From positions 1 to 40,005 of the forward strand of contig CALGFH010000139.1 in NCBI GenBank assembly GCA_937881255.1: a stretch of DNA of 40,005 nt, written 5' to 3'. The position numbers and the translations under genes were made by a program. A model generated the notes under the pieces. The model did no database searches, was not told the DNA's origin, and was given only the letters and a program-made list of their open reading frames with translations. Of the stretch, positions 9,666 through 39,112 are shown one piece after another. Numbering within the stretch: the first letter of the stretch is position 1; each line of letters opens with the position of its first letter. The stretch comes from an uncultured Actinomycetes bacterium. GTDB lineage: Bacteria; Actinomycetota; CALGFH01.

Positions 9666-9684
9666 CCCCCAGTCCCGCTGGATG

Positions 9685-10932
9685 TCAGCCGCACGCCAGC
9701 TCCTCGATCACCGCCGCCAGGGCCCGGACCCCTGCCAGGCAGTCGTCGAGGTCGGCGGTCTCGGATGGGCTGTGGCTGGTGCCGGTCGGGTTGCGGACGA
9801 ACAGCATGGCCGTGGGGACGGTGGCGGCCAGGGCGCCGGCGTCGTGGCCGGCGGCGGTGGGGAGGGCCGGGGGCTCGAGGCCGTCGGACCGCAGGCGGGC
9901 GTCGAGGCGGGCGGTCAGGTCGGCGTCGAAGGCGACCCCGGGGGTGCGGGACTCGACGGCCAGCTCGGCGGTCAGGCCGTTGCGGCCGGCCGCCTCCTCG
10001 ACCGCGGTCTGGAAGGCGGTGACCAGCCAGTCGAGGGTCCGGTCCTGGGGGGCCCGCGCGTCCAGCCAGGCCGAGACCCGGGCGGGCACCGAGTTGGCGG
10101 AGTTGGGCTCGACCTCGACCCGGCCGACGGTCGCGACCGCGTCCAGCTCGGTGGCCGCGGCCCGTGCCGCGAGGACGGCCGCGGCCAGGCCGAGCATCGG
10201 GTCGCGCCGGTCGGGCAGCCTGGTCGTGCCGGCATGGTTGGCCTCCCCGGTCAGGGTGAGCCGCCAGCGCCCGTGGGGCCAGATGCCGGTGCCCAGCCCG
10301 ACCGGCTGGCCGAGGTCGGCCAGGCCGCGTCCCTGCTCGACGTGGAGCTCGACGAACGCGCCCAACCGCCCGACCAGCGCCGGGTCGGGGCCGGCCTGGT
10401 CCGGGTCGGCCCCGGCCGCGGCCATCGCCTCGGCCACGGTGACCCCGTCCGGGTCGGCGCGGCCGAGCACGTCCGGCGGGTCGAGCGCCCCGGTCAGCAG
10501 CCGGCTCCCGAAGGTCGGCACCCCGAACCGCCCGCCCTCCTCGTCGGCGAAGGCCACCACCGCCACCGGCCGCTCCGGCTCCACCCCCCGGGCGATCAGC
10601 TCACCCACCGCGACCAGCCCGCTGACCACCCCGAGGGCGCCGTCGTAGGCCCCGCCCCGCCGGACCGTGTCCAGGTGGCTCCCGACCGCGACCACGCCAC
10701 CCTCCCCGGCCTCCCCCGGCCCGGCCCACCAGGCCCAGAGGTTGCCGGCGAGGTCCTGCTCCACGGTCAGGCCGCGGGCGCCGGCCTCGGCCTCGAACCA
10801 GGACCTGGCCGCGCGGTCCTCGTCGGTCCAGGCGAGCCGGGTCCAGCCGCCGGCCGGGTCCTGGCCGATCGCGGCCAGCCCGCCGAAGCACGCCTCGAAC
10901 CCGTCCCGCAGCCGATCCTCGCTCCCGCTCAT
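9685..10932 (-). CDS. M20-family amidohydrolase (allantoate amidohydrolase / N-carbamoyl-L-amino-acid hydrolase type)
   Basis: VAVGSHLDTVRRGGAYDGALGV, VAFADEEGGRFG, FVELHVEQG and FVRNPTGTSHSPSE motifs. The ATG at 10932 has GGGGAG 5 nt upstream. The track ORF starts at a GTG at 10944. Confidence 0.8.
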   Translation of the reverse strand: MSGSEDRLRDGFEACFGGLAAIGQDPAGGWTRLAWTDEDRAARSWFEAEAGARGLTVEQDLAGNLWAWWAGPGEAGEGGVVAVGSHLDTVRRGGAYDGALGVVSGLVAVGELIARGVEPERPVAVVAFADEEGGRFGVPTFGSRLLTGALDPPDVLGRADPDGVTVAEAMAAAGADPDQAGPDPALVGRLGAFVELHVEQGRGLADLGQPVGLGTGIWPHGRWRLTLTGEANHAGTTRLPDRRDPMLGLAAAVLAARAAATELDAVATVGRVEVEPNSANSVPARVSAWLDARAPQDRTLDWLVTAFQTAVEEAAGRNGLTAELAVESRTPGVAFDADLTARLDARLRSDGLEPPALPTAAGHDAGALAATVPTAMLFVRNPTGTSHSPSETADLDDCLAGVRALAAVIEELACG

Positions 10933-11003
10933 GCAGCTCCCCACCGCTCGACGCTCCTGCCCTGGTCGGTGGAGGGATGCTACGTCACGCTGCGAACGGC
11001 ACC

Positions 11004-12911
11004 TCAGGCCGTTGCCGGGCGGGTGGCCAACGTGACCGGGCGGCCGTCGGCCGCCGGCCCGACCGGGGCCCGGCCGAACTGGGTGTTGTAGAGGTCGGCG
11101 TAGAGGCCGCCGCCGGCCAGCAGCTCGGTGTGGGTGCCCTGCTCGGCCACCCGGCCGCCCTCGACGACCAGGATCCGGTCGGCGTTGACGATGGTCGACA
11201 GCCGGTGGGCGATGACCAGGCTGGTCCGCCCCTGGAGGGCGGCGGCCAGGGCCTCCTGGATGTGGACCTCGGCCTCGGAGTCGAGGTGGGCGGTGGCCTC
11301 GTCGAGGATCACGATGGCCGGGTCGGCCAGCAGCAGCCGGGCGATGGCCAGGCGCTGCTTCTCCCCGCCCGACAGCCGGTAGCCGCGCTCCCCGACCACC
11401 GTCTCCCAGCGCTCGGGCAGGCTCTCGATCAGGTCCAGGATCCTGGCCGAACGGCAGGCGGCCTCGATCTCCTCGAGGGTCGCGTCCGGGTTGGCGTAGC
11501 GGAGGTTGGCCAGGATGGACTCGTGGAACAGGTGCGGGTCCTGGGCGACCAGGCCGATCGCCCCCCGGAGGCTCTCCAGCTCCAGGTCGCGCACGTCGAC
11601 CCCGTCGACCCGGACGGCGCCCTCGCTGACGTCGTAGACCCGGGCCACCAGCATGGCCGTGGTCGTCTTGCCGGCCCCGGACGGGCCGACCAGGGCGACC
11701 AGCTCGCCGGGCCGGACGCTGAAGCTGACGTCGTGCAGGACCGGCTCGCCGGCGGCCGCCCCCACCGCCGACGCCCCGCCGGTGAGGCTGGCGATGGTCG
11801 ACTCCTCGGCCGTCGGGTAGCGGAAGCCGACGTGGTCGAACTCGATCCGGCCGGCCGGCTGGTCGAGGGCGACGGCCCCGGGCCGGTCGCGGATCGGGCT
11901 CTCGAAGTCGAGCACCTCGAAGACCCGCTCGAAGGACACGAACGCGGTCATCACGTCCACGCGGGCGTTGGTCAGGGCCGTCAGGGGGCCGTAGACCTGG
12001 GTGACCAGGGCGGCCAGGGCGACCACGTCGCCGGCCCGGAGCTGGTCCTGGAGCACCAGCCGGGCCCCGAACCAGTAGACGGCGGCCGTGCCCACCGCCC
12101 CGACCAGGCCGAGGACGACGAAGAAGGTCTGGCCGTAGAGGGCCGAGCGGATCCCGATGTCGCGGACCCCGGCGGCCTTGTCGGAGAAGCCGGCCAGCTC
12201 GCGCTGGCGGCGCCCGAACAGCATCACCAGCAGCGCCCCGGCGACGTTGAAGCGCTCGTTCATGGTCGTGTTCATGGCCGCGTTGAGCTGCATCGACTCG
12301 CGGGTGATGGCCTGGAGCCGGCGCCCCACCCGCCGGGCCGGGAGCAGGAACAGGGGCAGCACGGCGACCGCGATCAGGGTGATGCGCCAGTTCAGCAGGA
12401 ACATGGTCACCAGGGTCGTGACCAGGCTGATCAGGTTGGAGAAGACCGAGCCCAGGGTGCCGGTGAGGGCCCGCTGGGCGCCGATCACGTCGCTGTTGAG
12501 GCGGCTGGTCAGGGCGCCGGTCTGGGTGTGGGTGAAGAAGGCCAGCGGCTGGCGCTGGACGTGGTCGAACAGGCTGGTCCGGAGCTGGTAGATCAGCCCC
12601 TCGCCGATGCGCGAGGACAGGAACCGCTGGCCGAGGGCGAGCCCGGCGTTGGCCAGGGCGACCCCCACGGCGGCCAGGCCGATCAGGTTGACCAGGGAGA
12701 AGCTGCGCTGGGGGATGGCGGTGTTGAGCAGCTCGCGCACCAGCAGGGCCGGGACCACCGCGGCCAGGGACGACAGGGCGAGCAGGAACAGGTAGCCGGC
12801 GATCTGCCAGCGGAAGTCGCGGGCGAACCCCCAGACGCGCCGGACCACGTCGCGCGACACCTTGGTGCCGGGCGGGAGGGGTTCGCGGCGGGCGTGCCAG
12901 TAGTAGCTCAT
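11004..12911 (-). CDS. ABC transporter, fused permease/ATPase (MsbA/MdlB-type exporter)
   Basis: Six-TM N-terminal half. Walker A GPSGAGKTT, signature LSGGEKQR, Walker B ILDEATAHLD. Its start overlaps the upstream MFS stop (ATGA). Confidence 0.85.
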   Translation of the reverse strand: MSYYWHARREPLPPGTKVSRDVVRRVWGFARDFRWQIAGYLFLLALSSLAAVVPALLVRELLNTAIPQRSFSLVNLIGLAAVGVALANAGLALGQRFLSSRIGEGLIYQLRTSLFDHVQRQPLAFFTHTQTGALTSRLNSDVIGAQRALTGTLGSVFSNLISLVTTLVTMFLLNWRITLIAVAVLPLFLLPARRVGRRLQAITRESMQLNAAMNTTMNERFNVAGALLVMLFGRRQRELAGFSDKAAGVRDIGIRSALYGQTFFVVLGLVGAVGTAAVYWFGARLVLQDQLRAGDVVALAALVTQVYGPLTALTNARVDVMTAFVSFERVFEVLDFESPIRDRPGAVALDQPAGRIEFDHVGFRYPTAEESTIASLTGGASAVGAAAGEPVLHDVSFSVRPGELVALVGPSGAGKTTTAMLVARVYDVSEGAVRVDGVDVRDLELESLRGAIGLVAQDPHLFHESILANLRYANPDATLEEIEAACRSARILDLIESLPERWETVVGERGYRLSGGEKQRLAIARLLLADPAIVILDEATAHLDSEAEVHIQEALAAALQGRTSLVIAHRLSTIVNADRILVVEGGRVAEQGTHTELLAGGGLYADLYNTQFGRAPVGPAADGRPVTLATRPATA

Positions 12912-14134
12912 CCTGTCCGCCCCAACCCGTCGGCGACCTCCGGCATTCCGGCCGGCGCGGCGGCCAGGGCCGGCCGGCGCAGGCGGGCCAGCAGGGCCGC
13001 GGCCGCCACCCCGGCGGCGGCGATCAGGAACGCCCGGTCGGTGCCGACGCGGTGGACCAGGCTGCCGCCGAGGGCGTTGCCGATGGCGAACCCGGTCGAG
13101 AACGCGGTGGTGACCCAGGTGAAGGCCTCGGTGACCGTGCCCGCCGGGGCGAGCCGGTCGACCAGCAGGTACAGGCAGGCGATGGCCGGGGCGATGCCGA
13201 GCCCGGCCAGGACCATGCCAGCGCCCAGCTGGGCCAGCCCGCTGGCCACGGCGAGCAGGGCGATCCCGGCCACGACCAGGGCGAGCAGGGGGACCATGCG
13301 CTGCTCGGGACCTCGGTCGGTGACGCGGCTCCCGAAGGCCAGGCCGCCGGCCATGCTCCCGACCGCCCACAGGGCGAGCAGCGGGCCGGCCAGGGTGCGC
13401 GAGCCGAGCTGCTCGGCCCCGGCCACCACCGTCACCTCGACGGTCCCGAAGGCGCTGGCCAGCAGCACGATGGTGGCCAGCACGGCCCGGATGCCGGGGC
13501 TGCGCAGGGCCCCGGCCCAGTCGGCGGCGCGGCGCTGGGGGCGCCAGGCCCGCGACGCCGGGGTGGCGGCGAACACCCCGACCCCGAGCAGCAGCAGCGC
13601 GCCCGTGCCGAGCACGGCCGCGGCCGGGGAGAGCGCGGCCGCCAGCAGGGCGACCAGCGGCGGCCCGACCACGAAGATCAGCTCCTGCACGGTCGACTCG
13701 ACCGCGAACGCGGCCTGGAGCTGGCCGCCGGGGCCGAGCAGGTCGGACCACAGCGCCCGCATGCAGGCCGCGACCGGCGGGATCGACCCCCCGGCCAGGG
13801 CGGCCAGCCCGGCCAGCACGACCGGGGACGCGGACCGCCCGGCCCAGGCCAGGGCGGCGAAGCTGAGGCCGCTGGTCACCGCGCAGCCGACCAGGACCCG
13901 GGTCTGCCCGACCCGGTCGACCAGCCGCCCCAGCAGCGGCGAGGTCAGGGCCAGGGCGATCGAGTAGGTCCCGGCGACCACCCCGGCGACCGCGTAGGAC
14001 CCGCCCCCCTCCCGGACCAGCAGCACGATGGCCAGCCCGGCCATGGCCGTCGGCATCCTCCCCACCACCGCCGAGGAGAGCAGCCGGGCCACAAAGGGCG
14101 TGCGGAGCACATCAAGGTAGATCCGAAGGCGCAT
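12908..14134 (-). CDS. MFS transporter
   Basis: About 12 hydrophobic helices and an MFS-like loop LLGRLVDRVGQTR. 408 aa. Confidence 0.8.
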   Translation of the reverse strand: MRLRIYLDVLRTPFVARLLSSAVVGRMPTAMAGLAIVLLVREGGGSYAVAGVVAGTYSIALALTSPLLGRLVDRVGQTRVLVGCAVTSGLSFAALAWAGRSASPVVLAGLAALAGGSIPPVAACMRALWSDLLGPGGQLQAAFAVESTVQELIFVVGPPLVALLAAALSPAAAVLGTGALLLLGVGVFAATPASRAWRPQRRAADWAGALRSPGIRAVLATIVLLASAFGTVEVTVVAGAEQLGSRTLAGPLLALWAVGSMAGGLAFGSRVTDRGPEQRMVPLLALVVAGIALLAVASGLAQLGAGMVLAGLGIAPAIACLYLLVDRLAPAGTVTEAFTWVTTAFSTGFAIGNALGGSLVHRVGTDRAFLIAAAGVAAAALLARLRRPALAAAPAGMPEVADGLGRTG

Positions 14135-14759: not shown

Positions 14760-15110
14760 ATGAAGCTCACGTTCTTCTACCTGCCGGTCGCCGACCTGAA
14801 GGAGGCGCTGGCGCTCTACCGGGACACCCTCGGCTGGCAGGAGGCCTGGCGGGAGGGCGACACGACGACCAGCCTGCGGCTCCCTGGGACCGAGATCGAG
14901 CTGATGGTCGACACCGACGACGGCTCCATGACCCCCGGCCCCGTCTTCGAGGTCGACAGCGTCCAGGCGTTCCACGCCCGCCACCGGGACGAGCTTCGAT
15001 TCCGCTTCGAGCCCAAGGAGATCCCCGGCGGCTACTGGTCCGCCTTCGAGGACCCGTCCGGCAACCTCACCTACGTGCTCGACCAGTCCACCGCCGAGGC
15101 CGCCGGCTAG
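14760..15110 (+). CDS. VOC (glyoxalase/bleomycin-resistance fold) family protein
   Basis: 116 aa. KEALALYRDTLGW... and ...YWSAFEDPSGNLTYVL are typical of the small VOC fold. Strong SD GGAGGAGGGGG upstream. Confidence 0.7.
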   Translation: MKLTFFYLPVADLKEALALYRDTLGWQEAWREGDTTTSLRLPGTEIELMVDTDDGSMTPGPVFEVDSVQAFHARHRDELRFRFEPKEIPGGYWSAFEDPSGNLTYVLDQSTAEAAG

Positions 15111-16075
15111 CCCCAGCGGCGCAGGAGCCGCTCGGCTCCGGTGGCCAGCTCGTCGATCACCTGGGCGGCGGGTACAACCTGGCGGGTGGCGCCGACGCCC
15201 TGGCCGGCGTAGTGGACCATGGCGTCGATCTGGCCGGTGGTCTCGCGGTTGGGGCAGGGGACGCCGAAGCGGGGGACCGGGAGCGTCCGGGCGCCCATCC
15301 GGGTCTCGCCCACGACCTCGCCCTCGAACGCCTCGGCGGCCGCCACGGCCGAGCTGAGGGTGCGGTGCGGCTCCGGGCCGGGTGGCCACATCACCGAGAA
15401 GGCGTCGGTGAGCACGGTGTCCTCGGCCCCGGCCTGGAGCAGGGCGGCGACGTAGGCGGGGTGGGCGCCGGACTCCTCGGTGGCCAGCAGCCGGGTGCCG
15501 ACCCTGGCCGCCGAGGCGCCGGCGGCCAGGCAGGCCGCGACCCCGCGGGCGGTGGCGATCCCGCCGGCGGCGACCACCGGGACCTCGACCACGTCCAGGA
15601 CCTCGGCCAGCAGCGGCAGGAGGGCGACCTGGCCCCGGATGCGCCCGCCGCCCTCCACGCCCTGCACGCAGAGCAGGTCGCAGCCGGCGTCGGCGGCCGC
15701 CCTGGCCTCGTCGGCCGACCCGGCCTGCCAGGAGGCGAGGGCCCCGCCGTCGTGGACCCGCGCGACCAGCGCCGGGTCGGGGTCGCCGTAGTAGAAGTCG
15801 ACCAGCCGGGCCCCGGCCGCCGCGACCTCGACACAGGCCGCCTCGGCCCCGAAGGGCAGCAGGAAGGTGACTCCGACGACCCCGTCGGTCCGGCCGGCCA
15901 GGTCCTCCAGCAGCCCGGCCAGGTCGTCCGCCTGGAGCATCTGGGCCGGGACCATGCCGACCGCGCCCGCCCCGGCCACGGCCGCGACCAGCTCGGGGGT
16001 GGTGACCCCGCCCATCGGGGCCTGCTGGAGGGGCACGGAACAGCCCAGCAGCTCGGTGAACGGCGTCGAGAGCAT
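15107..16075 (-). CDS. nitronate monooxygenase (NMO / 2-nitropropane dioxygenase family)
   Basis: MLSTPFTELLGCSVPLQQAPMGGVT..., VQGVEGGGR and VVAAGGIATARGVAACLAAGASAARVGTRLLATEES. Confidence 0.8.
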   Translation of the reverse strand: MLSTPFTELLGCSVPLQQAPMGGVTTPELVAAVAGAGAVGMVPAQMLQADDLAGLLEDLAGRTDGVVGVTFLLPFGAEAACVEVAAAGARLVDFYYGDPDPALVARVHDGGALASWQAGSADEARAAADAGCDLLCVQGVEGGGRIRGQVALLPLLAEVLDVVEVPVVAAGGIATARGVAACLAAGASAARVGTRLLATEESGAHPAYVAALLQAGAEDTVLTDAFSVMWPPGPEPHRTLSSAVAAAEAFEGEVVGETRMGARTLPVPRFGVPCPNRETTGQIDAMVHYAGQGVGATRQVVPAAQVIDELATGAERLLRRWG

Positions 16076-16082
16076 GGCGGCC

Positions 16083-18394
16083 TCAGGGTCGGGTGAGGGG
16101 GGCGTAGCGGAGCAGCAGGCGCTTGCGGCCCAGGCCGGGGGGAAGTCGACCTCGGCCATGGCCCGCTCGCCCTGCCCGGACACGGTGGCCACGATGCCCT
16201 TGCCCCACTGGCGGTGGACGACCTCGTCGCCGGGGCCCAGGCCGAGGTCGAGGGCGCCGCGCTGGCGGTCGGCCAGCCGCTCGGCCGGGGTCGGCTGGCG
16301 GTCGAAGGAGACCGGCGGCTGGGGGCGGACGTTGAAGCTGCTCCGCCCGGCCCCGAACGCCGGGCTGGAGTCGCCCCAGCCGGCCGGGCCGGGCCGGGCG
16401 GCGCCGGTCTTGGCGCGCTGGCCGGGGGCGACCGTGACCAGCTCCTCGGGCACCTCCTTGAGGAAGCGCGAGGGCAGGTTGTAGCTGGTCGAGCCGAACA
16501 GGGTCCGGCTCCAGGCGTTGGTCAGGTAGAGGCGCTCCCGGGCCCGGGTGATGCCGACATAGGCCAGGCGCCGCTCCTCCTCGAGCTCGCGCGGCTCGCC
16601 GATGGAGCGGATGTGGGGGAACACGTTCTCCTCCAGGCCGACGATGAACACCACCGGGTACTCCAGGCCCTTGGCCGTGTGCAGGGTCATCAGGGTGACC
16701 GCCTGGCTGCCCGACTCGACCTGGTCGGCGTCTGACACCAGGGCGATCGACTCCAGGAACCCGGGGAGGGTCGGCTCGGCCTCCTGGCCCTCGCGCAGCT
16801 CGTACTCCTCGGCCGCCGACTGGAGCTCGCGGACGTTCTCGACCCGCCCCTGGCCCTCGATCGAGGTGTCGGCCTCCAGCTCCCGCATCAGCCCCGACAG
16901 GGTCCAGGCGTCCTGGACGAGCACGCTCGGGGAGCGGCCCTCCTCCACCCCGGCGGCCAGCTCGTCGAGCACGGCCACGAAGTCGGCCACCGCCCGGCCC
17001 TGGCGGGCGCCAAGGCCCGGGATCTCGCCGGCCCGGCGCAGGGCGTCCCCGAACGGGATGCCCTCCTCGCTGGCGAAGCGGTCGATGGCCCGCTCCGAGG
17101 TGTCGCCGATGCCGCGCCGGGGCACGTTCAGGACCCGGCGCAGGCTGACCGTGTCCAGCGGGTTGACCGTGGCCTTGAGGTAGGCGAGCAGGTCCTTGAC
17201 CTCGCGCCGGTCGTAGAACTTGACCCCGCCGACGATCTTGTAGGGCAGGCCGGCCTTGACGAACACCTCTTCCAGGGTCCGCGACTGGGCGTTGGTCCGG
17301 TAGAACACCACCACCTTGCCGTAGCCCAGGCCCTGCTCGTGGAGGCGCTCGACCTCCTCGACCACGTAGGCGGCCTCGTCGTGCTCGTTCTCGGCCTGGT
17401 AGCGCACGATCGGGTTGCCGGAGCCGATCGCCGTCCACAGGTTCTTGGGCTTGCGCTCCAGGTTGTTGGCGATCACCGCGTTGGCCGCCGACAGGATGGT
17501 CTGGGTCGAGCGGTAGTTCTGCTCGAGCAGGATGACGTTGGCCTCCGGGTAGTCGGCCTCGAAGTCGAGGATGTTGCGGACCGTCGCCCCCCGGAAGGCG
17601 TAGATCGACTGGTCGCCGTCGCCCACCACCGACAGGTTGCGGTGCTCGGCGGCCAGCAGCTTGAGCAGCTCGTACTGGGCCACGTTGGTGTCCTGGAACT
17701 CGTCCACGAGCACGTACCGGAACCGCTTCTGGTACTCGGCGAGCACGTCCGGGTGCCCCTGGAACAGCCGCACCGTCTGCAGGATCAGGTCGTCGAAGTC
17801 CATCGCGTTCGACTCGACCAGCTTCTGCTGGTACAGCCGGTAGGCCTCGGCGGCCTTCTTCTCGAACCAGCCCATCGCCCGGTCGGCCGCGGTCCCGGGG
17901 TCGATCAGCTGGTCCTTCCAGGCGCTCACCCCGTGGCGCATCGAGCGGGCCGACAGCCGCTTGGGGTCGTAGTCGAGCTGCCGGCAGACCTGGGTCATCA
18001 GCCGCTCGGCGTCGCCCTCGTCGTAGATCGAGAAGGTCGAGGTGTAGCCCAGGTGCGAGCCGCTGCGGCGCAGCATGCGCACGCAGGCCGAGTGGAAGGT
18101 CGACACCCACATCGCCTTGACGACCGGCCCGACCAGGTGGCGGAGCCGCTCCTGCATCTCCCGGGCCGCCTTGTTGGTGAAGGTGATGGCCAGCACCGAG
18201 GTCGGCGGCACCCGCTTGTCCTTGATCAGGTGGGCGATCCGGTGGGTCAGCACCCGGGTCTTGCCCGACCCGGCCCCGGCCACGATCAGCGTCGGCCCCT
18301 CGGTGGCCAGCACGGCCAGCCGCTGAGCGTCGTTCAGCCCATCCAGCAGATCAGGAGACGCGCCCGGAAGCTCCGGCGCCGGCGAAGGGTCCAC
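16083..18394 (-). CDS. pcrA: ATP-dependent DNA helicase PcrA/UvrD, with a 1-nt frameshift about 17 codons before its stop
   Basis: LNDAQRLAV, AGAGSGKTRVLTHRIA, ITFTNKAAREM, VDEFQDTN, GDGDQSIYAFRGA, LEQNYRST, TLHTAKGLEYPVVF and VGITRARERLYL motifs. The conserved tail KRLLLRYAPLTRP* is in the adjacent frame, downstream of G-run 16137-16142. GTG start at 18394. Confidence 0.85.
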
Positions 18395-18463
18395 GCCCGC
18401 AGTATACGAGCGGGACGGGATAGGCTTGGCCGTGTGAGCACAGGGGATCCGGGTCAGAACCGG

Positions 18464-19240
18464 ATGGTTGCAGGCTCGTCGGCCGCGTTGTCGGTGCGGG
18501 GGCTGCGCAAGGCGTTCGGGGCCAAGGTGGCGGTGGCCGGGATCAACCTGGAAATTCCGCACGGGTGCTTCTTCGGGCTGGTGGGGCCCAACGGGGCCGG
18601 GAAGACGACCACGCTGGGGATGGTGACCGGGCTGCTGCGGCCCGACGCCGGGCTGGTGCTGATCGACGGGGTCGAGGTGTGGCGCGACCCGGTCGAGGCC
18701 AAGCGGCGGATCGGGGTGCTGCCCGAGGACCTCCGGCTGTTCGACCGGCTGACCGGGGCCGAGCTGCTCACCTACAACGGGCTGCTGCGGGGGATGCCGG
18801 CGGCGGTGGTGGAGGCGCGGGCCGGCGAGCTGCTGGAGGTGCTGGGGCTGGCCGACGCCGCCGGGACCCTGGTGGTCGACTACTCGCACGGGATGCGCAA
18901 GAAGATCGCCCTGGCCTCGGCCCTGCTGCACGCGCCCCGGGTGCTGTTCCTGGACGAGCCGTTCGAGGCCATCGACCCGGTGTCGGCCCGGACCATCCGC
19001 GGGCTGCTGGAGCGGTACACGGCCGGCGGGGCCACGGTGATCTTCTCCAGCCACGTCATGGAGCTGGTCCAGCGGCTCTGCGACCGGGTCGGGATCATGC
19101 ACCTGGGCCAGCTCATCGCCGAGGGGCCGACCGAACAGGTGCGGGCCGGGCGCAGCCTCGAGGACGCCTTCGTCGAGCTGGTCGGGGCGAGCCACGCCGG
19201 TGCCGAGGAGCTGGGTTGGCTGGGCACCTGGTCAGCCTGA
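18464..19240 (+). CDS. ABC transporter ATP-binding protein
   Basis: Walker A GPNGAGKTTT, signature YSHGMRKK, Walker B VLFLDEPFEAID, H-loop SSHVM. Confidence 0.85.
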   Translation: MVAGSSAALSVRGLRKAFGAKVAVAGINLEIPHGCFFGLVGPNGAGKTTTLGMVTGLLRPDAGLVLIDGVEVWRDPVEAKRRIGVLPEDLRLFDRLTGAELLTYNGLLRGMPAAVVEARAGELLEVLGLADAAGTLVVDYSHGMRKKIALASALLHAPRVLFLDEPFEAIDPVSARTIRGLLERYTAGGATVIFSSHVMELVQRLCDRVGIMHLGQLIAEGPTEQVRAGRSLEDAFVELVGASHAGAEELGWLGTWSA

Positions 19241-28180: not shown

Positions 28181-28675
28181 GTGCCCGTGCCCGACCCCCT
28201 CGACCCGTTCGAGCCGCAAGACGACTCGCCCCCCGAGCCCATCGACGAAGAGGAGCGTGCCGCGCTTCTGGACGACCTGGCCGACCTGGCCGAGTTCCGG
28301 GCGGCGCTGGAGCAGCGCGGCTTCCTCGGCGTGGTCATCTCCTGCCCCGACTGCGAGGAGGACCACTTCTTCGGCTGGAGCCTGCTGCGGGAGAACCTGG
28401 AGCACATCCTCCAGCACGGCGAGCCCCGGGTGCACGAGCCGGCCTTCGAGCCGGCGGTCGACCACTACGTGACCTGGGACTACGCCAAGGGCTTCGTCGA
28501 CGGCGTGCTCGAGGGCGAGCACGAGCACGGCCCCCTGCGCGACGGCTGGACCTCCCCGGCCGAGGCCGCCCGGCGCCTGCGCCGGGCCCTGGCCACCCGC
28601 GGCCTGTCCGAGGACGAGGTCGCGGCCGTGCTCAGCGAGGGCGGCCTTCCGGCCGCCGACCCCGGCGACCGCTAG
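28181..28675 (+). CDS. Rv3412-like conserved actinobacterial protein (I recall this family as DUF5319)
   Basis: CPDCEEDHFFGWSLLRENL...HEPAFEPAVDHYVTWDY matches the remembered Rv3412 core (CDECQQDHYHDWDMLRSNL...HEPAYDPEPDSYVTWDY). GTG start. Confidence 0.7.
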   Translation: MPVPDPLDPFEPQDDSPPEPIDEEERAALLDDLADLAEFRAALEQRGFLGVVISCPDCEEDHFFGWSLLRENLEHILQHGEPRVHEPAFEPAVDHYVTWDYAKGFVDGVLEGEHEHGPLRDGWTSPAEAARRLRRALATRGLSEDEVAAVLSEGGLPAADPGDR

Positions 28676-29490
28676 CGCCGCTTGCGCCTGGCCAGACGGC
28701 GGCCGGTGACGGCGGCCGCGGCGGTGGTGGCGGTGGCCGCCATCCCGGCGGGCAGCCAGACCAGCCACAGCCGGCGCCGGCGGCGGAAGTCCTGCACCGG
28801 CCAGCCCCGCTCGGCGGCCAGCTCGCGCAGGTGCCGGTCGGGGTTGACCGCCACCGGCCGGCCGACCCCCTCCAGCAGCGGCCGGTCGTTCACCGAGTCC
28901 GAGTAGGCGCTGCACCGGCGCAGGTCGAAGCCGTGGCTGTCGGCCAGCCGGATGACCGCGTCGAGCTTGGCCGGCCCGTGCAGCACCGGCCCGACCAGCC
29001 GGCCGGTGTAGGTGCCGTCGACCAGCTCGCCGACCGTGCCCAGCCCGCCGTCCATGCCCAGGTAGGCCGCGATCCCCTCGGCCAGCTCCTTGGGGGCCGC
29101 GGTGACCAGGTAGGTCTTGTCGCCGTCGGCGTGGTGGGCGTCGATCACCTTGCGCATCCCCGGGTAGATGCGGGGGCCGATCACCTCGACCACGATGTCG
29201 TGGCCGATCTGGGTCAGGTCGTCGCGCCGCTTGCCCTCGATGAAGGCCAGGGCCTGCTCGCGGGCCGCCTCCATCCCCTTCTTGCCCTCGGCCCCGGTCA
29301 GCCGGAACACCAGCTGCCCGAACGCGAACCCGGCGATGTCCCGCAGGTGGTAGAACCCGTGCCGGTACAGCCCCCTGGCGAACAGGTACATGCTCGACCC
29401 GGGCAGCAGCGTCTTGTCCACGTCGAAGAACGCCGCCCGGCCCGTCCCGACCCCGGTGCCGCTGCCCCCCGCCTCCCTGGTCAGGGTCAT
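28672..29490 (-). CDS. HAD-IB family hydrolase (SerB-like) with a C-terminal TM/poly-Arg tail
   Basis: FFDVDKTLL (DxDxT), [18 protein letters not shown]. Its start overlaps the uxs stop (ATGA). Confidence 0.8.
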
Positions 29491-31820
29491 GTGCCGGAAG
29501 CCTCCAGCGCCCGCCGGAACCAGGGCACGGTCCGCTGGACCCCCTCCTCCAGCGAGATCTGCGGCTTCCAGCCCAGCTCCGCCACCGCCCTGGTGATGTC
29601 CGGCCGCCGCACCTCCGGGTCGTCCACCGGCCGCGGCCGCAGCTCGATCCTCGGCTCCGCCACCCCGGCCGCCCGGGCCACGGCCCGGGCCAGCTCGAGG
29701 ATCGTCACCTCCTCCGGGTTCCCCAGGTTGACCGGCCCCACCAGGTCGCTCCCCAGCAGCCGCCAGATCCCCTCGATCAGGTCGTCCACATAGCACAACG
29801 ACCGGGTCTGGCTCCCGTCCCCGTGCACGGTCAGCGGCTCCCCCCGCAACGCCTGCACGGCAAAGGTGCAGAAGGCGCGCCCGTCGTCGATCCGCATGGA
29901 CGGGCCGTAGGTGTTGTGGGCCATGACGCCGGTTCCGGCCCAGAAGTTCTCGAGGCCGGGAACCGAGAAGTCGTAGACGAGCGGCGTGGCCGCGACCTCC
30001 TCGATCACCTGGACCTGGGCCCATACCAGGTCGCCCGTCCGGCGAGCGTTCAGCCGCTGAGCAACGCCACGGTCCCAATCCAGGGGGCTCCATGGCTGGA
30101 CGTCGCAGAGGGTGAGGCGCCAGAACGGGTACCGACGGTCCCCGGTGCGCTGCCTGAAGGTCGATTCGTAGCGACCGACCGAGGGCAGCAGCCCGAAGCG
30201 GGCGAACGCCACGATGAGATCGTCCTTGAGCTCGGCGTGAACCGTGGAGAACTCGTGCCGCTTGGCGGCGTCGAACTTCTTGCCGGAGTGGACACCGTCG
30301 CCTTCACGGTAGCCCTCGATCACCCACTTCAGCCGCGAGAGCGGCAGCCCCAGCATCCAGCCGGGAAGCCGCTTTCGTCCGGCCTCGAAGCCGAGGTGGT
30401 CGAACAGCATCAGGAGCAGCCTGGAGTGCACGAAGATGGCGGGGCTGCGCGCGGCGGTCCCCTTCGCCTGCACGACATGGACTCCGAGGTCCCGCTCGAT
30501 GATCTTGGTGGCGCGACGCAGCGTCTCGTCGTCGCACGAGATGTGGATGAACGCGCTCTTGGGTGGGTCCTCGAACCGGCCGCCCTCGGCGATGAACAGC
30601 CCCAGGAGCCAGAGCAGCTCGTCCGTGACCTGGATCCGGGCCGGCAGCTCGGCTGATGGACCCGAGGTCCGCAGCCGCACCCGCGCATCCTCGGGGATCG
30701 GAATCCCGAGGGCCCGCATCGCTCCCAACGGGAGCTGGCCGCGTCGACGATGGGTGTGGACCTCTCCCCAGAGCATCCGGCGCTTGTGCGGGACGTCTCT
30801 GGGATCGTGGCGCATGATCGCCGCCAGGACCTCCTGGCGGCGCTCCCAGACCACCTGCTCGAGCCCGGGCGCCCGGACCATCAGCTTCCATGGGTCCAGG
30901 CCTGCGGCGTCCCAGACCTCGAGCATCGACACCTGCGGCCGGTCGCGCTCGGGAACCTCCACCTTCGTGGCGACCGCAACACGGTCTCCCACCCGGAGAT
31001 CGTCGACGGGGCGGGCCTCCGGCCGGCCATCCGGCCCTTCCACGAACAGGCTGTGATCACCGGTCACCTTGATGGAGCGGCCGTACGCGGTGTGGACCTC
31101 GTAGCACCGGGCCGACGTCGGGTGCCCGATCAGCGCCGAGGCCCCGGCCGCCCGCATCCGCGCGTCGTGGTCGAACGCCGGGACGCGGAAGCCGCTCGGC
31201 AACGGCCTGCCTCCCAACCGCTTCGCCAGTTCCTCCACCGGTTCGCGGCGGAGCTCCTGCCCGTCGTCGTAGAGCACCTGCTCGTCGGCGAGGATGGAGT
31301 TGAAGATGCGGACGATGCGGACCTGGACCCCGTGGGTGCGGTGGTAGGCCATGGCCAGGGCCTCGGCGAAGCGCTTGGCCTCGTCGTAGACGCCGCGGGG
31401 GCCGATGGGGTTGACGTGGCCCCAGTAGGACTCGGGCTGGGGGTGGACCTGGGGGTCGCCGTAGACCTCGCTGGTCGAGGCGAGCAGGAAGCGGGCCTGC
31501 TTCTCCTTGGCCAGGCCGAGGGCGTGGTGGGTGCCCAGGGCACCGACCTTGAGGGTCTGGATCGGGTACTTGAGGTAGTCGATCGGGCTGGCCGGCGAGG
31601 CGAAGTGGAGCACGGCGTCGAGCGGGCCGGGCACGTGGATGAAGTCGGTCACGTTGACGTTGAGCAGCTGGAACCGGTTCCCCACGAGGTCGTCGACGTT
31701 GCTGGCCCGGCCGGTGAGGAAGTTGTCCATGCAGACGACGTCCCAGCCCTCGCCCAGCAGCCGCCGGCACAGGTGGGACCCGAGGAAGCCGGCGCCGCCG
31801 GTGATCAGGGCCCTTGGCAC
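29487..31820 (-). CDS. uxs: UDP-glucuronate decarboxylase (UDP-xylose synthase), intein-containing precursor
   Basis: The exteins (174 + 141 aa) carry [25 protein letters not shown] (YxxxK), RIFN|TYGP and [18 protein letters not shown] start 1 nt after the ugd stop. Confidence 0.9.
29913..31298 (-). mobile_element. 462-aa intein with a LAGLIDADG homing-endonuclease domain
   Basis: Block [11 protein letters not shown] (Ser1), block [20 protein letters not shown] motifs [13 protein letters not shown] (30579-30620) and [12 protein letters not shown] (30294-30329). Block F/G is [22 protein letters not shown], followed by Thr+1. Confidence 0.85.
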
Positions 31821-31821
31821 C

Positions 31822-33159
31822 TCAGCGGCTCCCGTCGGCCGGGGCCCGGACCGGGCGGCCGACCCCGGCGACGGTGAAGCCGGCGGCCACGAACGCCTCG
31901 GCGTCGAGCGCGTTGCGGGCGTCGACCAGGATCGGGTAGGCCATGCGGGAGCGGAGGTCGGCCGGGTCGAGGTCGCTGAACTCGGCCCACTCGGTCATCA
32001 GGACCAGGGCGTGGGCGCCGTCGGCGACCTCGGCCGCCTTGTCGGCCAGCTCCAGGCCGGGTACCTGCCGGGCCGCCAGGTCGCCGGCCACCGGGTCGTA
32101 GGCGACCACCCGGGCGCCGTCGGCCAGCAGGTCGCGGGCCACGTCGATCGAGGGCGCCTCGCGCAGGTCGTCGGTGTTGGGCTTGAACGACAGGCCCAGC
32201 ATCCCGACCCGCTTGCCGTCCAGGTGCCAGAGGGCGTCGCGGACCTTGTCGACCACGGCCCGCCTGGCCTCGTGGTTGATCTTGGCCACCTCGTTGAGGA
32301 TGCCGAAGTCGACGCCCAGCTCGCGGGAGCGGTGGGCGAAGGCGGCCACGTCCTTGGGGAAGCAGCTGCCCCCGTAGCCGGCCCCGGCCTTGAGGAAGTG
32401 GACGCCGATGCGCGGGTCCAGGCCCATGCCCCGCGCGACCAGCTCGACGTCGGCCCCCGACCGCTCGCACACCCTGGCCACCGAGTTGATGAAGCTGATC
32501 TTGGTGGCCAGGAAGGCGTTGGAGGCGTGCTTGATGAGCTCGGCGGTGGCCCGGTCGGTGGCCAGGAAGGGCGCGCCCGAGCGCTCCAGGATTGGCTGGT
32601 ACAGCTCGCGCAGGGCGGCCAGGCCCCGCTCGGAGGCGGTGCCGACGACCACCCGGTCCGGGTCGAGGGTGTCGACCACGGCCGAGCCCTCGCGCAGGAA
32701 CTCGGGATTGGAGGCGACCTCCCAGTCGGCCCCCGGCCTGGCCTCGCGGGCGATGACCTGGGCGACCCGCTCGCCGGTCTGCACCGGCACGGTCGACTTC
32801 TCGCAGACCAGGCGGAACTCGCCCTCGGGCAGGGAGCGGGCCACCTCCCTGGCCACCGCCTCGACATAGGCCAGGTTGGGGCTGCCGTCGCCGCGGCTCG
32901 GGGTGCCGACGCAGATGAAGATCACGGTCCCGTGGCCGACGGCCTCGGCCTTGTCGCCGGCGATCCGGAGCCGGCCCGACCGGACCACCTCCCCCAGCAG
33001 CTCCTGGAGGCCCGGCTCGAAGAACCAGGAGCGGCCCTCACGGATGAGGTCCAGTTTGCTGGCGTCGTCATCGTCGACCACCACGTCGTGGCCGACGTGG
33101 GCGAGGCAGGCGGCGGTGACGAGGCCGACGTGGCCGGCGCCGATCACGGTGACGCGCAT
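31822..33159 (-). CDS. ugd: UDP-glucose 6-dehydrogenase
   Basis: [38 protein letters not shown] and [12 protein letters not shown]. Confidence 0.9.
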
Positions 33160-33282
33160 GCTGGCAGGCTCCTGATTTCGGGTGACGGAAATAGCGCCGG
33201 ATGATTCTAGTGGATGCCGGCCCCTCACAACCGGAGCGACGTCCTTGTCCGGCTCGTCGCCCGGTGCGACACTGCGGCCGCG

Positions 33283-34602
33283 ATGCCGACGCGCCCCACC
33301 TTGCCACGCCGGTCCCTCCGGCTCCTCCTGGCCGCCCTGCTCCTGGCGGCCAGCATGGTCGCGGCCGAAGCCGTCCCAGCGACCGCGGGGTCGGGGGCCA
33401 CTGCGGGGTCCGAGGCCGCGGGACTCCGGGCTGCGGACAGCGGGACCCGCCCGTTCCCCGGGTCGGGGGCTGTGGACAACGGGACGCGGCCGTTTCCCGG
33501 GTCGGCTACGCTCCCCCTCCGGGGGGCCCGGTTCAGCGGGGTCGGGCTGCCGCGTGGGCCGGCTGCGCCACGGGCGGGTTCGGGTCCTGGGCGGGTGGTC
33601 AGGGCCAGGTACGCGATCCTGGTCGACCCGCAGACCGGGGCGGTGCTCTGGGGGCGGCGCAGCCGCACGCCCGTGCCGCCGGCCAGCCTGACCAAGATGC
33701 TGACCGCCCTGGCCGTGCGGGCCAGCCTCGACCTGGACGCGGTGACGGTGGCCTCCAAGACGGCGGCCGCCCAGCCGGCCCGGCGCCTGGCCATGAAGCG
33801 CGGGCAGAAGCTCACCGTCGGCCAGGCCCTCAAGGCCCTGATGATCGTGTCCGCCAACGACGTCGCCGTGATGCTGGCCGAGGCGGCCGGCGGGTCGGTG
33901 GCCCGCTTCGCCCGGGCCATGGACGCCGAGTCGGCGCGGCTCGGCCTCCGCGCCTCCTCCTGGCGCAACCCGCACGGCCTGGACGCCCGCGGCCACCGCT
34001 CGACCGCCTTCGACCTGGCCATCCTGGCCAGGGCCGTCCTCCAGGACCCGTGGCTGGCCCGGGTCGTGCGCAAGCGCCACGCGGCCTTCATCTCGCCCAG
34101 CGGCCGCCGCCACACCCTCACCGCCCGCTCCCGGTTCCTGCTCGGCTACCGGGGCGCCGTCGGGGTCAAGACCGGGTTCACCGACGACGCCGGCCACTGC
34201 CTGGCCGCCGCGGCCACCCGGGGCGGGCGGACCCTGATCGCGGTGGTGCTGCACAGCCCCGACAACGCGGCCGACGCCGGGAGGATGCTCGACTGGGGCT
34301 TCGGCCGCGGCCGCTCGGCCCAGACCGGCCTGCGGCTGCCGGGCCCCGTCCGGCCGTCCAGCTTGGCCGCGCTCCTCACCCGTCCGCCCCGGGCCGTCGA
34401 GCGCCACCACCCGGCCGCCTCCGAGGCGCTGGCCTCGGCCGGCCTGGCCCGGGTCGGGGCGACCCCGGCGGCCCGTCCGGCCGGGTCCCGGACTGCCTGG
34501 ACGTGGCGGGACCGCCAGCGTGTGGCCACCGGCGCCGGGGCGGTCGTCGCCCTCCTGGCCGCGCTCACGCTCGCTGTCCACAGATTCCGCCAGCGGGCTT
34601 GA
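33283..34602 (+). CDS. D-alanyl-D-alanine carboxypeptidase (S11 penicillin-binding protein)
   Basis: Signal peptide MPTRPTLPRRSLRLLLAALLLAASMVAAEA. Catalytic motifs SLTK (SxxK), SAN (SxN) and KTG. C-terminal TM anchor. The track ORF starts earlier, at 33214. Confidence 0.8.
   Translation: MPTRPTLPRRSLRLLLAALLLAASMVAAEAVPATAGSGATAGSEAAGLRAADSGTRPFPGSGAVDNGTRPFPGSATLPLRGARFSGVGLPRGPAAPRAGSGPGRVVRARYAILVDPQTGAVLWGRRSRTPVPPASLTKMLTALAVRASLDLDAVTVASKTAAAQPARRLAMKRGQKLTVGQALKALMIVSANDVAVMLAEAAGGSVARFARAMDAESARLGLRASSWRNPHGLDARGHRSTAFDLAILARAVLQDPWLARVVRKRHAAFISPSGRRHTLTARSRFLLGYRGAVGVKTGFTDDAGHCLAAAATRGGRTLIAVVLHSPDNAADAGRMLDWGFGRGRSAQTGLRLPGPVRPSSLAALLTRPPRAVERHHPAASEALASAGLARVGATPAARPAGSRTAWTWRDRQRVATGAGAVVALLAALTLAVHRFRQRA
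33431..33508 (+). repeat. two tandem 39-nt units inside the carboxypeptidase linker
   Basis: Units 33431-33469 and 33470-33508 are 31/39 identical. They encode DSGTRPFPGSGAV / DNGTRPFPGSATL. Confidence 0.75.
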
Positions 34603-35348: not shown

Positions 35349-38261
<2,913 letters not shown>

Positions 38262-38269
38262 TGTCCGAT

Positions 38270-38366
38270 CTCCTCCCTCCGCCGGCATTATCCGGTGCAG
38301 GTTCCAACGGTCGGCGGCCCCGTAGCCGCCCTCTCAGCCCGGTGGCCCGGGCTCCCGTGTGCTCCG
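38270..38366 (-). promoter_or_regulatory. TPP (THI-box) riboswitch in the thiO leader
   Basis: The minus strand reads ACGGGAGCCCGGGCCACCGGGCTGAGAGGGCGGCTACGGGGCCGCCGACCGTTGGAACCTGCACCGGATAATGCCGGCGGAGGGAGGAG. This shows the conserved CTGAGA, ACC..T.GAACCTG, GGATAATGCC and GCG.AGGGA elements. The SD lies at its 3' edge. Confidence 0.85.
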
Positions 38367-38413
38367 ACCAGCGTACTCTTCGTCCCGGTACCGCCACAGT
38401 GGGAGGAGCGACC

Positions 38414-39112
38414 GTGGACGCCGACGACACCCAGCGCCTGCGCGAGCTGCGCCAGGTCGTCTACCGGGAGTTCGTGGAGGAGGGCCGCCCGCCCACCGCC
38501 GCCGAGGCGGCCCGCCGTCTCCAGCTCGGGGTCGAGGAGGTCATGGCCGGCTGGGGACGGCTGCACGACGACCACGTGCTGGTCCTGGACGACGACCGGG
38601 TCGGGATCCGCATGGCCCATCCCTTCTCGGCCGCCCCAATGCACTTCGTGGTCGCCTCGGCCGAGCAGAAGTGGTGGGGCGGCTGCGCCTGGGACTCCTT
38701 CGGGATCATGGCCGCCCTCGGCCAGCAGGTCCTGGTGGCCACCACCTGCCTCGGCTGCGGGCGGCCGCTGGCCCTGCTGGCCGACCCCGGGGCGCCGCCG
38801 CCCGAGCCGTACGTGGCCCACTTCCTGGTCCCGGCGGCCCGCTGGTGGGACGACGTGGTCGCCACCTGCTCGACCATCCGCCTGGCCTGCGACCGGGAGT
38901 GTGTCGAGCGGTGGGCGGCGGCCGAGGGCGAGCGGGTCGGGGCGGTGCTGGACCTCACCACGATGTGGCGGCTGGGCAAGGTCTGGTACGGCGACCGGCT
39001 GCACGACGACCACCGCCGGCGCACCCCGGAGGAGGCGGCCGTCGTGTTCGCCGAGCTCGGGCTCACCGGCCCGTTCTGGGACCTGGGCGACCCGGGCCCG
39101 GCGGCCGGCTAG
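38414..39112 (+). CDS. alkylmercury-lyase (MerB)-family protein
   Basis: N-terminal wHTH-like LRQVVYREFVEEGRPPTAAEAARRL. The core WWGGCAWDSFG resembles the MerB Cys96-x-x-Asp99 motif (TWCALD as I recall it). A later Cys lies in ATCSTIRLACDRECVERW. GTG start with GGGAGGAG 5 nt upstream. Confidence 0.65.
   Translation: MDADDTQRLRELRQVVYREFVEEGRPPTAAEAARRLQLGVEEVMAGWGRLHDDHVLVLDDDRVGIRMAHPFSAAPMHFVVASAEQKWWGGCAWDSFGIMAALGQQVLVATTCLGCGRPLALLADPGAPPPEPYVAHFLVPAARWWDDVVATCSTIRLACDRECVERWAAAEGERVGAVLDLTTMWRLGKVWYGDRLHDDHRRRTPEEAAVVFAELGLTGPFWDLGDPGPAAG

Follow-up and report, generated by a model that had tools for sequence, protein, structure and literature searches.

A 40,005-nt stretch of DNA from an uncultured Actinomycetes bacterium (contig CALGFH010000139.1), referred to here as the window, carries a gene for UDP-glucuronate decarboxylase (uxs) that is interrupted in frame by 462 codons. 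The insert is very probably a canonical class-1 intein with a two-motif LAGLIDADG homing endonuclease, seated within the RIFN|T[YF]GP motif of the enzyme, where the vertical bar marks the insertion point. Its boundaries are exact, and alleles with and without it occur in the same population. Efficient splicing of this allele and present activity of its nuclease are what the sequence would predict.

The precursor open reading frame (ORF; 29487..31820, minus strand) starts with GTG and encodes 777 residues plus a stop codon, comprising N-extein, intein and C-extein. The N-extein (residues 1–174, 31299..31820, minus strand) is the Rossmann half of Uxs, with the GGAGFLG and STSE motifs and the catalytic residues Tyr145 and Lys149. 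The intein follows as precursor residues 175–636 (29913..31298, minus strand; 1386 nt), a class-1 splicing domain into which a LAGLIDADG homing-endonuclease domain is inserted. The C-extein (residues 637–777, 29490..29912, minus strand) is the substrate-binding half and begins with Thr+1 (ACC). In the translation, RIFN174 is followed by S175ILADEQ, and VMAHN636 by T637YGPSM.

The Uxs host and its intein

The 315-residue protein obtained by splicing in silico matches the human UXS1 structures 4gll and 2b69 at E=2e-105, whereas the next family of the short-chain dehydrogenases/reductases (SDRs) is reached only at E=3e-36. The alignment to human UXS1 runs without a gap across the RIFN-T[YF]GP junction. 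Both catalytic residues and the GxxGxxG motif are present, and the insertion lies 29 residues past Tyr145. Close intein-free relatives bear the NCBI name 'UDP-glucuronic acid decarboxylase family protein'. These features identify the host as Uxs, an extended SDR, as a first-pass annotation made from the letters of the window had claimed. The predicted reaction is the conversion of UDP-glucuronate into UDP-xylose. This assignment is supported by the gene directly upstream, which that annotation had correctly read as ugd, for UDP-glucose 6-dehydrogenase (31822..33159, minus strand; 445 residues). The ugd product has three UDPG_MGDP_dh domains and no intein, and a single nucleotide separates its stop codon from the uxs start. 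UDP-xylose production would depend on splicing if the copy in the window is the only one; a second uxs may lie elsewhere in the genome.

The Pfam profiles Epimerase and GDP_Man_Dehyd match the precursor up to residue 175 and resume from residue 637. Between them, the Pfam profile Intein_splicing (PF14890) matches at E~1e-18 with the whole ORF and at 3e-19 with the insert alone. The NCBIfam pair TIGR01445/TIGR01443 passes its cutoffs, with 28.7 bits against 24.5 for intein_Nterm and 18.7 bits against 15.6 for intein_Cterm. A search with Hint-domain profiles had been proposed in the first-pass annotation, and all three match significantly. The limits given there, 29913..31298 with 462 residues inserted after Asn174, turn out to be exact to the base.

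The first nucleophile, Ser1, is encoded by TCC (31296..31298, minus strand). Block B reads Thr79-Gly-Asp-His82 (TxxH; 31053..31064, minus strand), and blocks F and G (intein residues 441–462; 29913..29978, minus strand) contain Asp443 and end in His461, the penultimate residue, and Asn462, the residue for cyclisation. Ser1, Thr79, His82, Asp443 and Asn462 are all invariant across 111 aligned inteins of the family. Ser1 is likewise found at 75 of 75 genome loci, and Thr+1 (precursor Thr637) in each of the 111 proteins and 75 loci that were examined. The pattern by which the 111 inteins were extracted accepted only sequences that began with Ser and ended in Asn; an earlier, looser pattern allowing S, C, A or T at position 1 returned Ser alone. 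The penultimate residue (29916..29918) is variable, with H in 71, K in 39 and N in 1 of the 111 proteins, and H in 48, K in 13, R in 6, A in 5, S in 2 and T in 1 of the 75 loci. This variation suggests that Asn cyclisation in the Uxs intein family may be independent of the penultimate residue. All the hallmarks first read in the ORF are present, namely Ser1, TxxH, two LAGLIDADG motifs with their acids (E238 and D334), the terminal HN and Thr+1. By domains, motifs and fold the insert is a canonical class-1 intein, and splicing of the ORF is predicted.

The LAGLIDADG endonuclease core occupies intein residues ~216–400 (30099..30653, minus strand) and consists of two alpha-beta-beta-alpha-beta-beta-alpha halves in the AlphaFold2 model. 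The first LAGLIDADG helix (residues 228–240; 30579..30617, minus strand) holds the catalytic Glu238, and the second (residues 323–335; 30294..30332, minus strand) the catalytic Asp334. In a phmmer comparison with PDB chains, the motifs LLGLFIAE238GG and VIEGYREGD334G align to the two LAGLIDADG motifs of PI-PkoII, LLGYYVSEG and FLEGYFIGDG respectively, and the intein C-terminus ending in HN aligns to its block F/G. The model, built from a 72-sequence alignment, has a mean predicted local distance difference test (pLDDT) score of 92.6 and a predicted template-modelling (pTM) score of 0.90, and the two motifs form its helices 226–238 and 320–334. PI-PkoII is also the best PDB match of the model in Foldseek (E=9e-30, query TM-score (TMq) 0.71). 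Further Foldseek neighbours are the TliVMA and PhoVMA inteins, PI-PfuI and PI-SceI, while the nuclease core also matches I-DmoI, and the splicing lobes match numerous mini-inteins.

Glu238 is kept in 95% of the 111 proteins and at 66 of the 75 genome loci, and Asp334 in 92% of the proteins and at 72 loci. In the five comparisons with enough divergence, the ratio of nonsynonymous to synonymous substitution (dN/dS, Nei-Gojobori) of the nuclease core is 0.17–0.28, similar to that of the splicing lobes; the exteins give about 0.09–0.3. These are rough, distance-based values, with dS distorted by the extreme GC content at third codon positions (GC3). They indicate that the nuclease domain is under purifying selection across the family. 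The nuclease of the window allele is predicted to be active still.

On the basis of the conserved chemistry of the family, we propose the following pathway. The 777-residue precursor would fold, and Ser1 would undergo an N-O acyl shift with the help of Thr79 and His82. Thr+1 would attack the resulting ester, and Asn462 would then cyclise, helped by His461 and Asp443. The products would be a free intein of ~51 kDa and the ligated 315-residue Uxs, the sole enzymatically competent form. The free intein would cut intein-free uxs alleles across GTCCGCATCTTCAAC|ACCTACGGCCCG, the reconstituted target site being GTCCGCATCTTCAAC|ACCTACGGCCCGTCC. Recombinational repair would copy the intein in and drag some flanking extein sequence along.

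Occupied, empty and recombinant alleles

Among 5.8 billion proteins searched with the spliced extein, the best match is P0121, a natural 315-residue protein without intein that is 100% identical to the predicted spliced product and stands for a cluster of 53 members. Its contigs (L081–L083) come from three metagenomes of the Joint Genome Institute (JGI) and show the same gene order, ugd, uxs and a gene for a HAD-family hydrolase. On both sides they are 98.0–98.7% identical to the flanks of the window, and they lack exactly 1386 bp, window positions 29913..31298, so that the boundaries of the intein are confirmed by nature. Each allele contig derives from a different sample; the source metagenomes are JGI 3300078584, 3300076760, 3300062116, 3300039399 and 3300082531 and ENA ERZ924368. 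Judged by nucleotide identity, occupied and empty alleles coexist in one species-level population. Two checks laid out in the first-pass annotation are thereby answered: an intein-free homologue runs contiguously across the junction, and a survey of relatives finds both allele kinds. Over the 30 nt to each side of the insertion point, a single base differs, 10 nt upstream in the codon for Arg171 (in 31298..31307), which is CGC in all four occupied alleles and CGT in all three empty ones. We also looked for co-conversion between the window and L081–L083; the density of single-nucleotide polymorphisms near the junction is not clearly above or below background.

Among occupied alleles, L085 and L086 have flanks 99–100% identical to the window, and their intein is a mosaic. 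Codons 1 to ~320 are 95–100% identical to the window, identity then falls to 63–83%, and afterwards it returns to 98–100%. The divergent block covers intein residues ~337–462 and ~35 nt of the C-extein (29877..30291, minus strand). A maximum-chi-square test places its left breakpoint at intein residues 336–338, directly after the second LAGLIDADG motif, with 2.8% mismatches to the left and 30% to the right (p~1e-43). Two types of C-terminal block occur across the family, distributed independently of how the N-terminal parts are related. The tract spans the intein/extein junction, which is like what homing with co-conversion would leave.

A further allele, L084, has an intein 99.6% identical to that of the window. 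At 29481..29600 of the window, the last ~120 nt of its C-extein are 81–88% identical, and beyond them the contigs are unalignable. This drop may mark another recombination breakpoint, or it may be an artefact of the contig end.

Intein and extein also disagree in their degree of divergence. In P0001, the extein is 96.5% and the intein 99.1% identical to the window, the former value being as low as this because of the drop at the end of the L084 C-extein. In P0002, the extein is 98.7% and the intein only 89.2% identical, whereas P0121 has an identical extein and no intein. The most divergent exteins in the set (P0054–P0067) are ~60–64% identical to the window and carry inteins that are 66–68% identical. 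Since inteins diverge faster than exteins among close relatives, this last pattern reverses the prediction of vertical descent.

We placed 100 intein-bearing and 114 intein-free exteins on a neighbour-joining tree, a simple distance-based estimate. The intein state changes at least 28 times on this tree, against a mean of 71 and a minimum of 57 changes for randomised states. The trait is thus clustered and yet far from a single gain. For 33 of the 214 exteins, the nearest neighbour is in the opposite state.

Composition gives a further indication of origin. The first-pass annotation had compared hand-counted lines of sequence, and its counts are right (65.8% GC at 30181..30300 and 78.3% at 31861..31920), but the contrast drawn from them rests on cherry-picked lines. 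Bulk GC is 0.696 in the intein and 0.715 in the exteins, and we rejected it as too weak to serve as evidence of foreign origin, using GC3 instead. GC3 reaches 0.981 in the exteins and 0.984 in ugd, but only 0.892 in the intein (Fisher p=7e-7). The foreign or mobile origin that the annotation had proposed is supported by this deficit, by the presence/absence polymorphism, by the disagreement between intein and extein and by the recombinant block. On these grounds the element appears to have been mobile recently.

Intein-free uxs genes of neighbouring lineages bear rare codons ending in A or T right around the insertion point, although the GC3 of these genes is 0.92–0.98; the empty site of L087, for example, reads TTCAAT|ACCTTTGGACCTTTCATGAGACTTGATGAT. 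Codons −10 to +15 around the junction were counted. This interval was set after the first lineages had been seen, and four more lineages were then fetched. Codons ending in A or T near the site make up 12 of the gene's 17 in L087 (Fisher p=1.7e-11), 9 of 22 in L088 (p=7e-6) and 3 of 7 in L093 (p=0.012). In the lineages fetched later, L099 (p=1.8e-8) and L103 (p=0.002) are enriched, and L101 and L105 are not. The empty allele from the population of the window itself, L081, has CGT at codon −3 only. Enrichment is therefore seen in 5 of 8 intein-free lineages (loci L087, L088–L092, L093–L098, L099 and L103). Pooled over the eight, which are not fully independent, 45 of 200 codons near the site end in A or T, against 77 of 2316 elsewhere (p=9e-21).

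Occupied alleles are almost without this pattern (8.8% near the site against 6.7% far from it), and only 1 of 79 loci is significant. The Asn codon before the junction is AAT instead of AAC in 5 of the 8 empty lineages, as against only ~10% of the occupied alleles. Divergence anchored at the junction, measured in a 75-nt patch, is significant only in L087, L088 and L099; its ungapped comparison inflates the background and makes it a weak test, and the codon-ending test is the cleaner measure. Selection for nuclease-resistant target sites, local mutagenesis during break repair, and loss of the intein through a short conversion patch whose donor had lower GC are candidate causes of the codon cluster. 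Occupied alleles lack the pattern, which speaks against a scar inherited from the flanks of an intein donor.

Relatives, known inteins and neighbouring genes

The intein alone retrieves 1068 proteins at E<=0.001. The best 120 of them are all Uxs with intein, ~775 residues long, down to 60% intein identity, and share the junction RIFN|S[IV]LA...N|T[YF]G. Many are labelled 'UDP-glucuronate decarboxylase' or 'nucleoside-diphosphate-sugar epimerase/intein/homing endonuclease' at JGI. More than 100 protein clusters hold the same-site Uxs intein, as do at least 97 genomes in a scan that took a single genome for each GTDB species. The 80 listed genomes are all metagenome-assembled genomes (MAGs) of Actinomycetota, from Actinomycetes, Acidimicrobiia, Thermoleophilia (Solirubrobacterales, Gaiellales), Rubrobacteraceae and Nitriliruptoria. 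In 75 of these 80, the ORF is intact over both junctions.

We also ran HMMER without filters on 1.84 billion cluster representatives and obtained 934 matches. Full-length representatives were scanned, 20 with Pfam and 10 with NCBIfam. Most of those at 26–44% intein identity are extended SDRs that are split at position ~171–174 of 240 in the Epimerase profile. Cyanobacterial Uxs proteins with a same-site intein occur in Oscillatoriaceae MAGs (P0278/P0406). P0254 is a dTDP-glucose 4,6-dehydratase (RmlB) with an intein at the homologous N|xxGP position, and P0311 passes the RmlB equivalog cutoff, with its intein a couple of residues off. Other SDR hosts, GalE/LegB-like proteins among them, are P0257, P0269, P0272, P0286, P0291, P0299 and P0305, and some same-site SDR inteins use a Cys nucleophile. 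Paralogous sugar-nucleotide enzymes thus seem to share an intein hotspot in the N|xxGP loop. The rarity implied by the first reading of the window is not borne out, given these clusters, genomes and JGI labels and the same-site inteins in cyanobacterial Uxs and RmlB. The InBase 'Ter Ndse' inteins of Trichodesmium may lie in a cyanobacterial sugar epimerase and may belong to this same-site group.

In sequence and fold, the closest known inteins are those of the archaeal PI-PkoII/PI-PfuI group. PI-PkoII, DNA polymerase intein 2 of Thermococcus kodakarensis (PDB 2cw7), is the best sequence match, at E=6e-15 with the single sequence and 1e-23 with a profile. It shares the order of Hint N-lobe, two-motif LAGLIDADG nuclease and Hint C-lobe ending in ENF..G....HN. 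It differs in its archaeal origin, its DNA polymerase host and its length of 537 residues with an extra domain, and identity is only ~20%. PI-SceI (the VMA1 intein) and PI-PfuI, homing inteins that have been studied experimentally, belong to the same fold class, but are 12–14% identical and differ in the kingdom and the protein that host them. Intein homing, with its cycle of invasion, decay and loss, has PI-SceI as its model system. The presence/absence polymorphism and horizontal transfer of the Uxs intein fit this model, although PI-SceI homes via meiosis, whereas the Uxs intein would need DNA transfer between bacterial cells.

The same-site SDR inteins of cyanobacterial Uxs, RmlB and GalE/LegB-like proteins are likewise LAGLIDADG inteins, only 26–44% identical and found in other paralogues and phyla. 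The classical actinobacterial inteins (DnaB, RNR, RecA, GyrA and others) occur in the same phylum and also sit in conserved motifs; their hosts act in replication, repair and nucleotide metabolism, whereas the Uxs intein has a Ser1/Thr+1 junction in a sugar-nucleotide enzyme. Archaeal UDP-GlcDH (COG1004) is a nucleotide-sugar enzyme of the same pathway as Uxs, with 10 inteins in Euryarchaeota in Table 2 of Novikova et al. 2016 (PMC4760082), and it differs in host protein, fold and domain of life. It is the only sugar-nucleotide host in the main text of that paper, and the top 15 bacterial intein hosts in its Table 1 include neither Uxs nor any extended SDR. A full-text literature search found no paper on an intein in Uxs or in an epimerase/dehydratase-type SDR, and the few matches it gave were coincidental.

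The third gene of the ugd-uxs-HAD unit encodes the HAD-family hydrolase (28672..29490, minus strand), with a 4-nt overlap between its start and the uxs stop. The same arrangement is found in L081–L098, and this conservation likewise supports the predicted Uxs reaction. The wider context is that of an ordinary actinobacterial chromosome, with guaA, IMPDH-like genes, a UvrD-type helicase and IspH. We looked for other inteins in the window, and the UvrD-like helicase within 15107..19231 has no intein domain.

Other features of the window were noticed in passing. In a Peptidase_S11 gene (33214..34602, plus strand), a 39-nt unit encoding GTRPFPGS... occurs twice at 33428..33505. In its N-terminal region (33399..33505), the BLAST alignment to L081/L082 breaks between 33398 and 33460, and the window apparently has ~72 extra nt at the repeat. 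This is a length polymorphism in the signal/linker region of a D-Ala-D-Ala carboxypeptidase. An alkylmercury lyase (MerB) domain (E=2e-28) is encoded by an ORF (38216..39112, plus strand) that adjoins the gene of an FAD-dependent oxidoreductase (37050..38333, minus strand) and is unconnected to the intein. About 5 kb at 9682..13967 contain long ORFs (469 and 996 residues on the plus strand, others antisense) without a Pfam match; they may simply be spurious open frames in DNA of 75% GC.

Competing explanations and significance

Several observations weigh against a mobile intein with a working nuclease. The Pfam profile LAGLIDADG_3 scores 18.4 bits on the window intein, below its cutoff of 22.5; relatives at 26–44% identity clearly pass it (P0251, for example, with 54 bits). 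The two motifs are nevertheless confirmed by the PI-PkoII alignment, the family profile and the fold. About 5–12% of the family lacks one catalytic acid, so nuclease decay occurs, in keeping with some lineages having entered the decay phase. A very active nuclease and frequent exchange of DNA should already have led to invasion of the near-identical empty targets. In the search for a carrier, tblastn of the intein gave one weak match among GenBank phages (24.5% identity over half of the query) and none among plasmids, and a scan of IMG/VR contigs for the intein found none.

The last three of these observations would suit an intein that splices but is an immobile passenger, with an inactive nuclease here and with polymorphism and mosaics produced by ordinary homologous recombination. 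So would the close allele pairs involving L084, in which dN/dS of the nuclease core is near 1, from a handful of substitutions only. We consider such a passenger rather unlikely. The window allele keeps both catalytic acids, the low dN/dS of the core across the family is hard to explain without nuclease action, and the divergent block crosses the junction as co-conversion would have it. Meanwhile, the rare codons on the empty sites of most intein-free lineages suggest pressure from a working nuclease. A quite different role, as a regulator of Uxs whose splicing depends on temperature, redox state, metal or substrate and switches the UDP-xylose supply, is improbable. In its favour, the intein has a wide and long-standing distribution across several actinobacterial classes, and its insertion into a conserved motif, between the halves of the enzyme, would be expected to leave the precursor inactive; conditional splicing is documented for other inteins, as discussed in Novikova et al. 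2016 (PMC4760082). On the other hand, the junction nucleophiles are Ser and Thr rather than the redox-sensitive Cys of known redox switches, and frequent gain and loss looks like a selfish element. Intein-free alleles encoding an identical enzyme are common (clusters of 53 members for P0121 and 737 for P0124), so the host has no need of the intein.

We give very little credence to an insertion that does not splice, whether in a disrupted pseudogene or as 462 residues kept as an extra domain. Splicing is read here from sequence, and the unusual variability of the penultimate residue (H, K, R, A, S, T) would be in line with its loss. Yet the nucleophiles and assisting residues are all invariant, the ORF is intact in nearly all listed genomes, and the insertion splits the enzyme between its halves; moreover, the exteins are under strong purifying selection, unlike a dead gene. 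A chimera in which the metagenome assembler joined the intein into uxs is hardly credible. The exact 777-residue product of the window has no other database record, but the same in-frame architecture at the same codon recurs in independent ENA, JGI and NCBI MAG assemblies, with L084, L085, L086 and L001–L080 as independent carriers. A mobile, splicing intein in Uxs thus remains the reading we favour.

A broader picture is conceivable, although we lean against it at present: a live conflict between intein and host in uncultured soil Actinomycetota, in which a large LAGLIDADG clade, as yet undescribed, holds one structural site of extended-SDR nucleotide-sugar enzymes (Uxs, RmlB, GalE-like) across phyla. 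Alleles of one population would exchange the second nuclease half together with the C-terminal splicing lobe as a module, and intein-free alleles would evade invasion through rare synonymous codons ending in A or T on the homing site. If this is true, the codon cluster would be a natural target-site immunisation written in codon usage.

Mechanistically, the Uxs intein is a textbook nuclease-bearing class-1 intein, and hundreds of its kind already lie in public databases under automatic intein labels. It extends the catalogue by one host protein and one insertion site. Most known inteins belong to replication and repair proteins of cultured organisms, and the Uxs intein is common only in uncultured Actinomycetota, which probably explains why no paper on it was found. 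With its cysteine-free Ser1/Thr+1 junction, it could serve as a tool.

The host is a cell-envelope sugar-nucleotide enzyme, and the larger value of its intein lies in a natural system for bacterial homing. To our knowledge, the homing cycle has seldom been observed directly in bacteria. Public metagenomes hold four kinds of allele, namely occupied, empty with a near-identical target, recombinant, and empty with rare codons on the target. Since these occur in closely related genomes, the cycle of invasion, recombination, resistance and loss could become measurable in bacteria.

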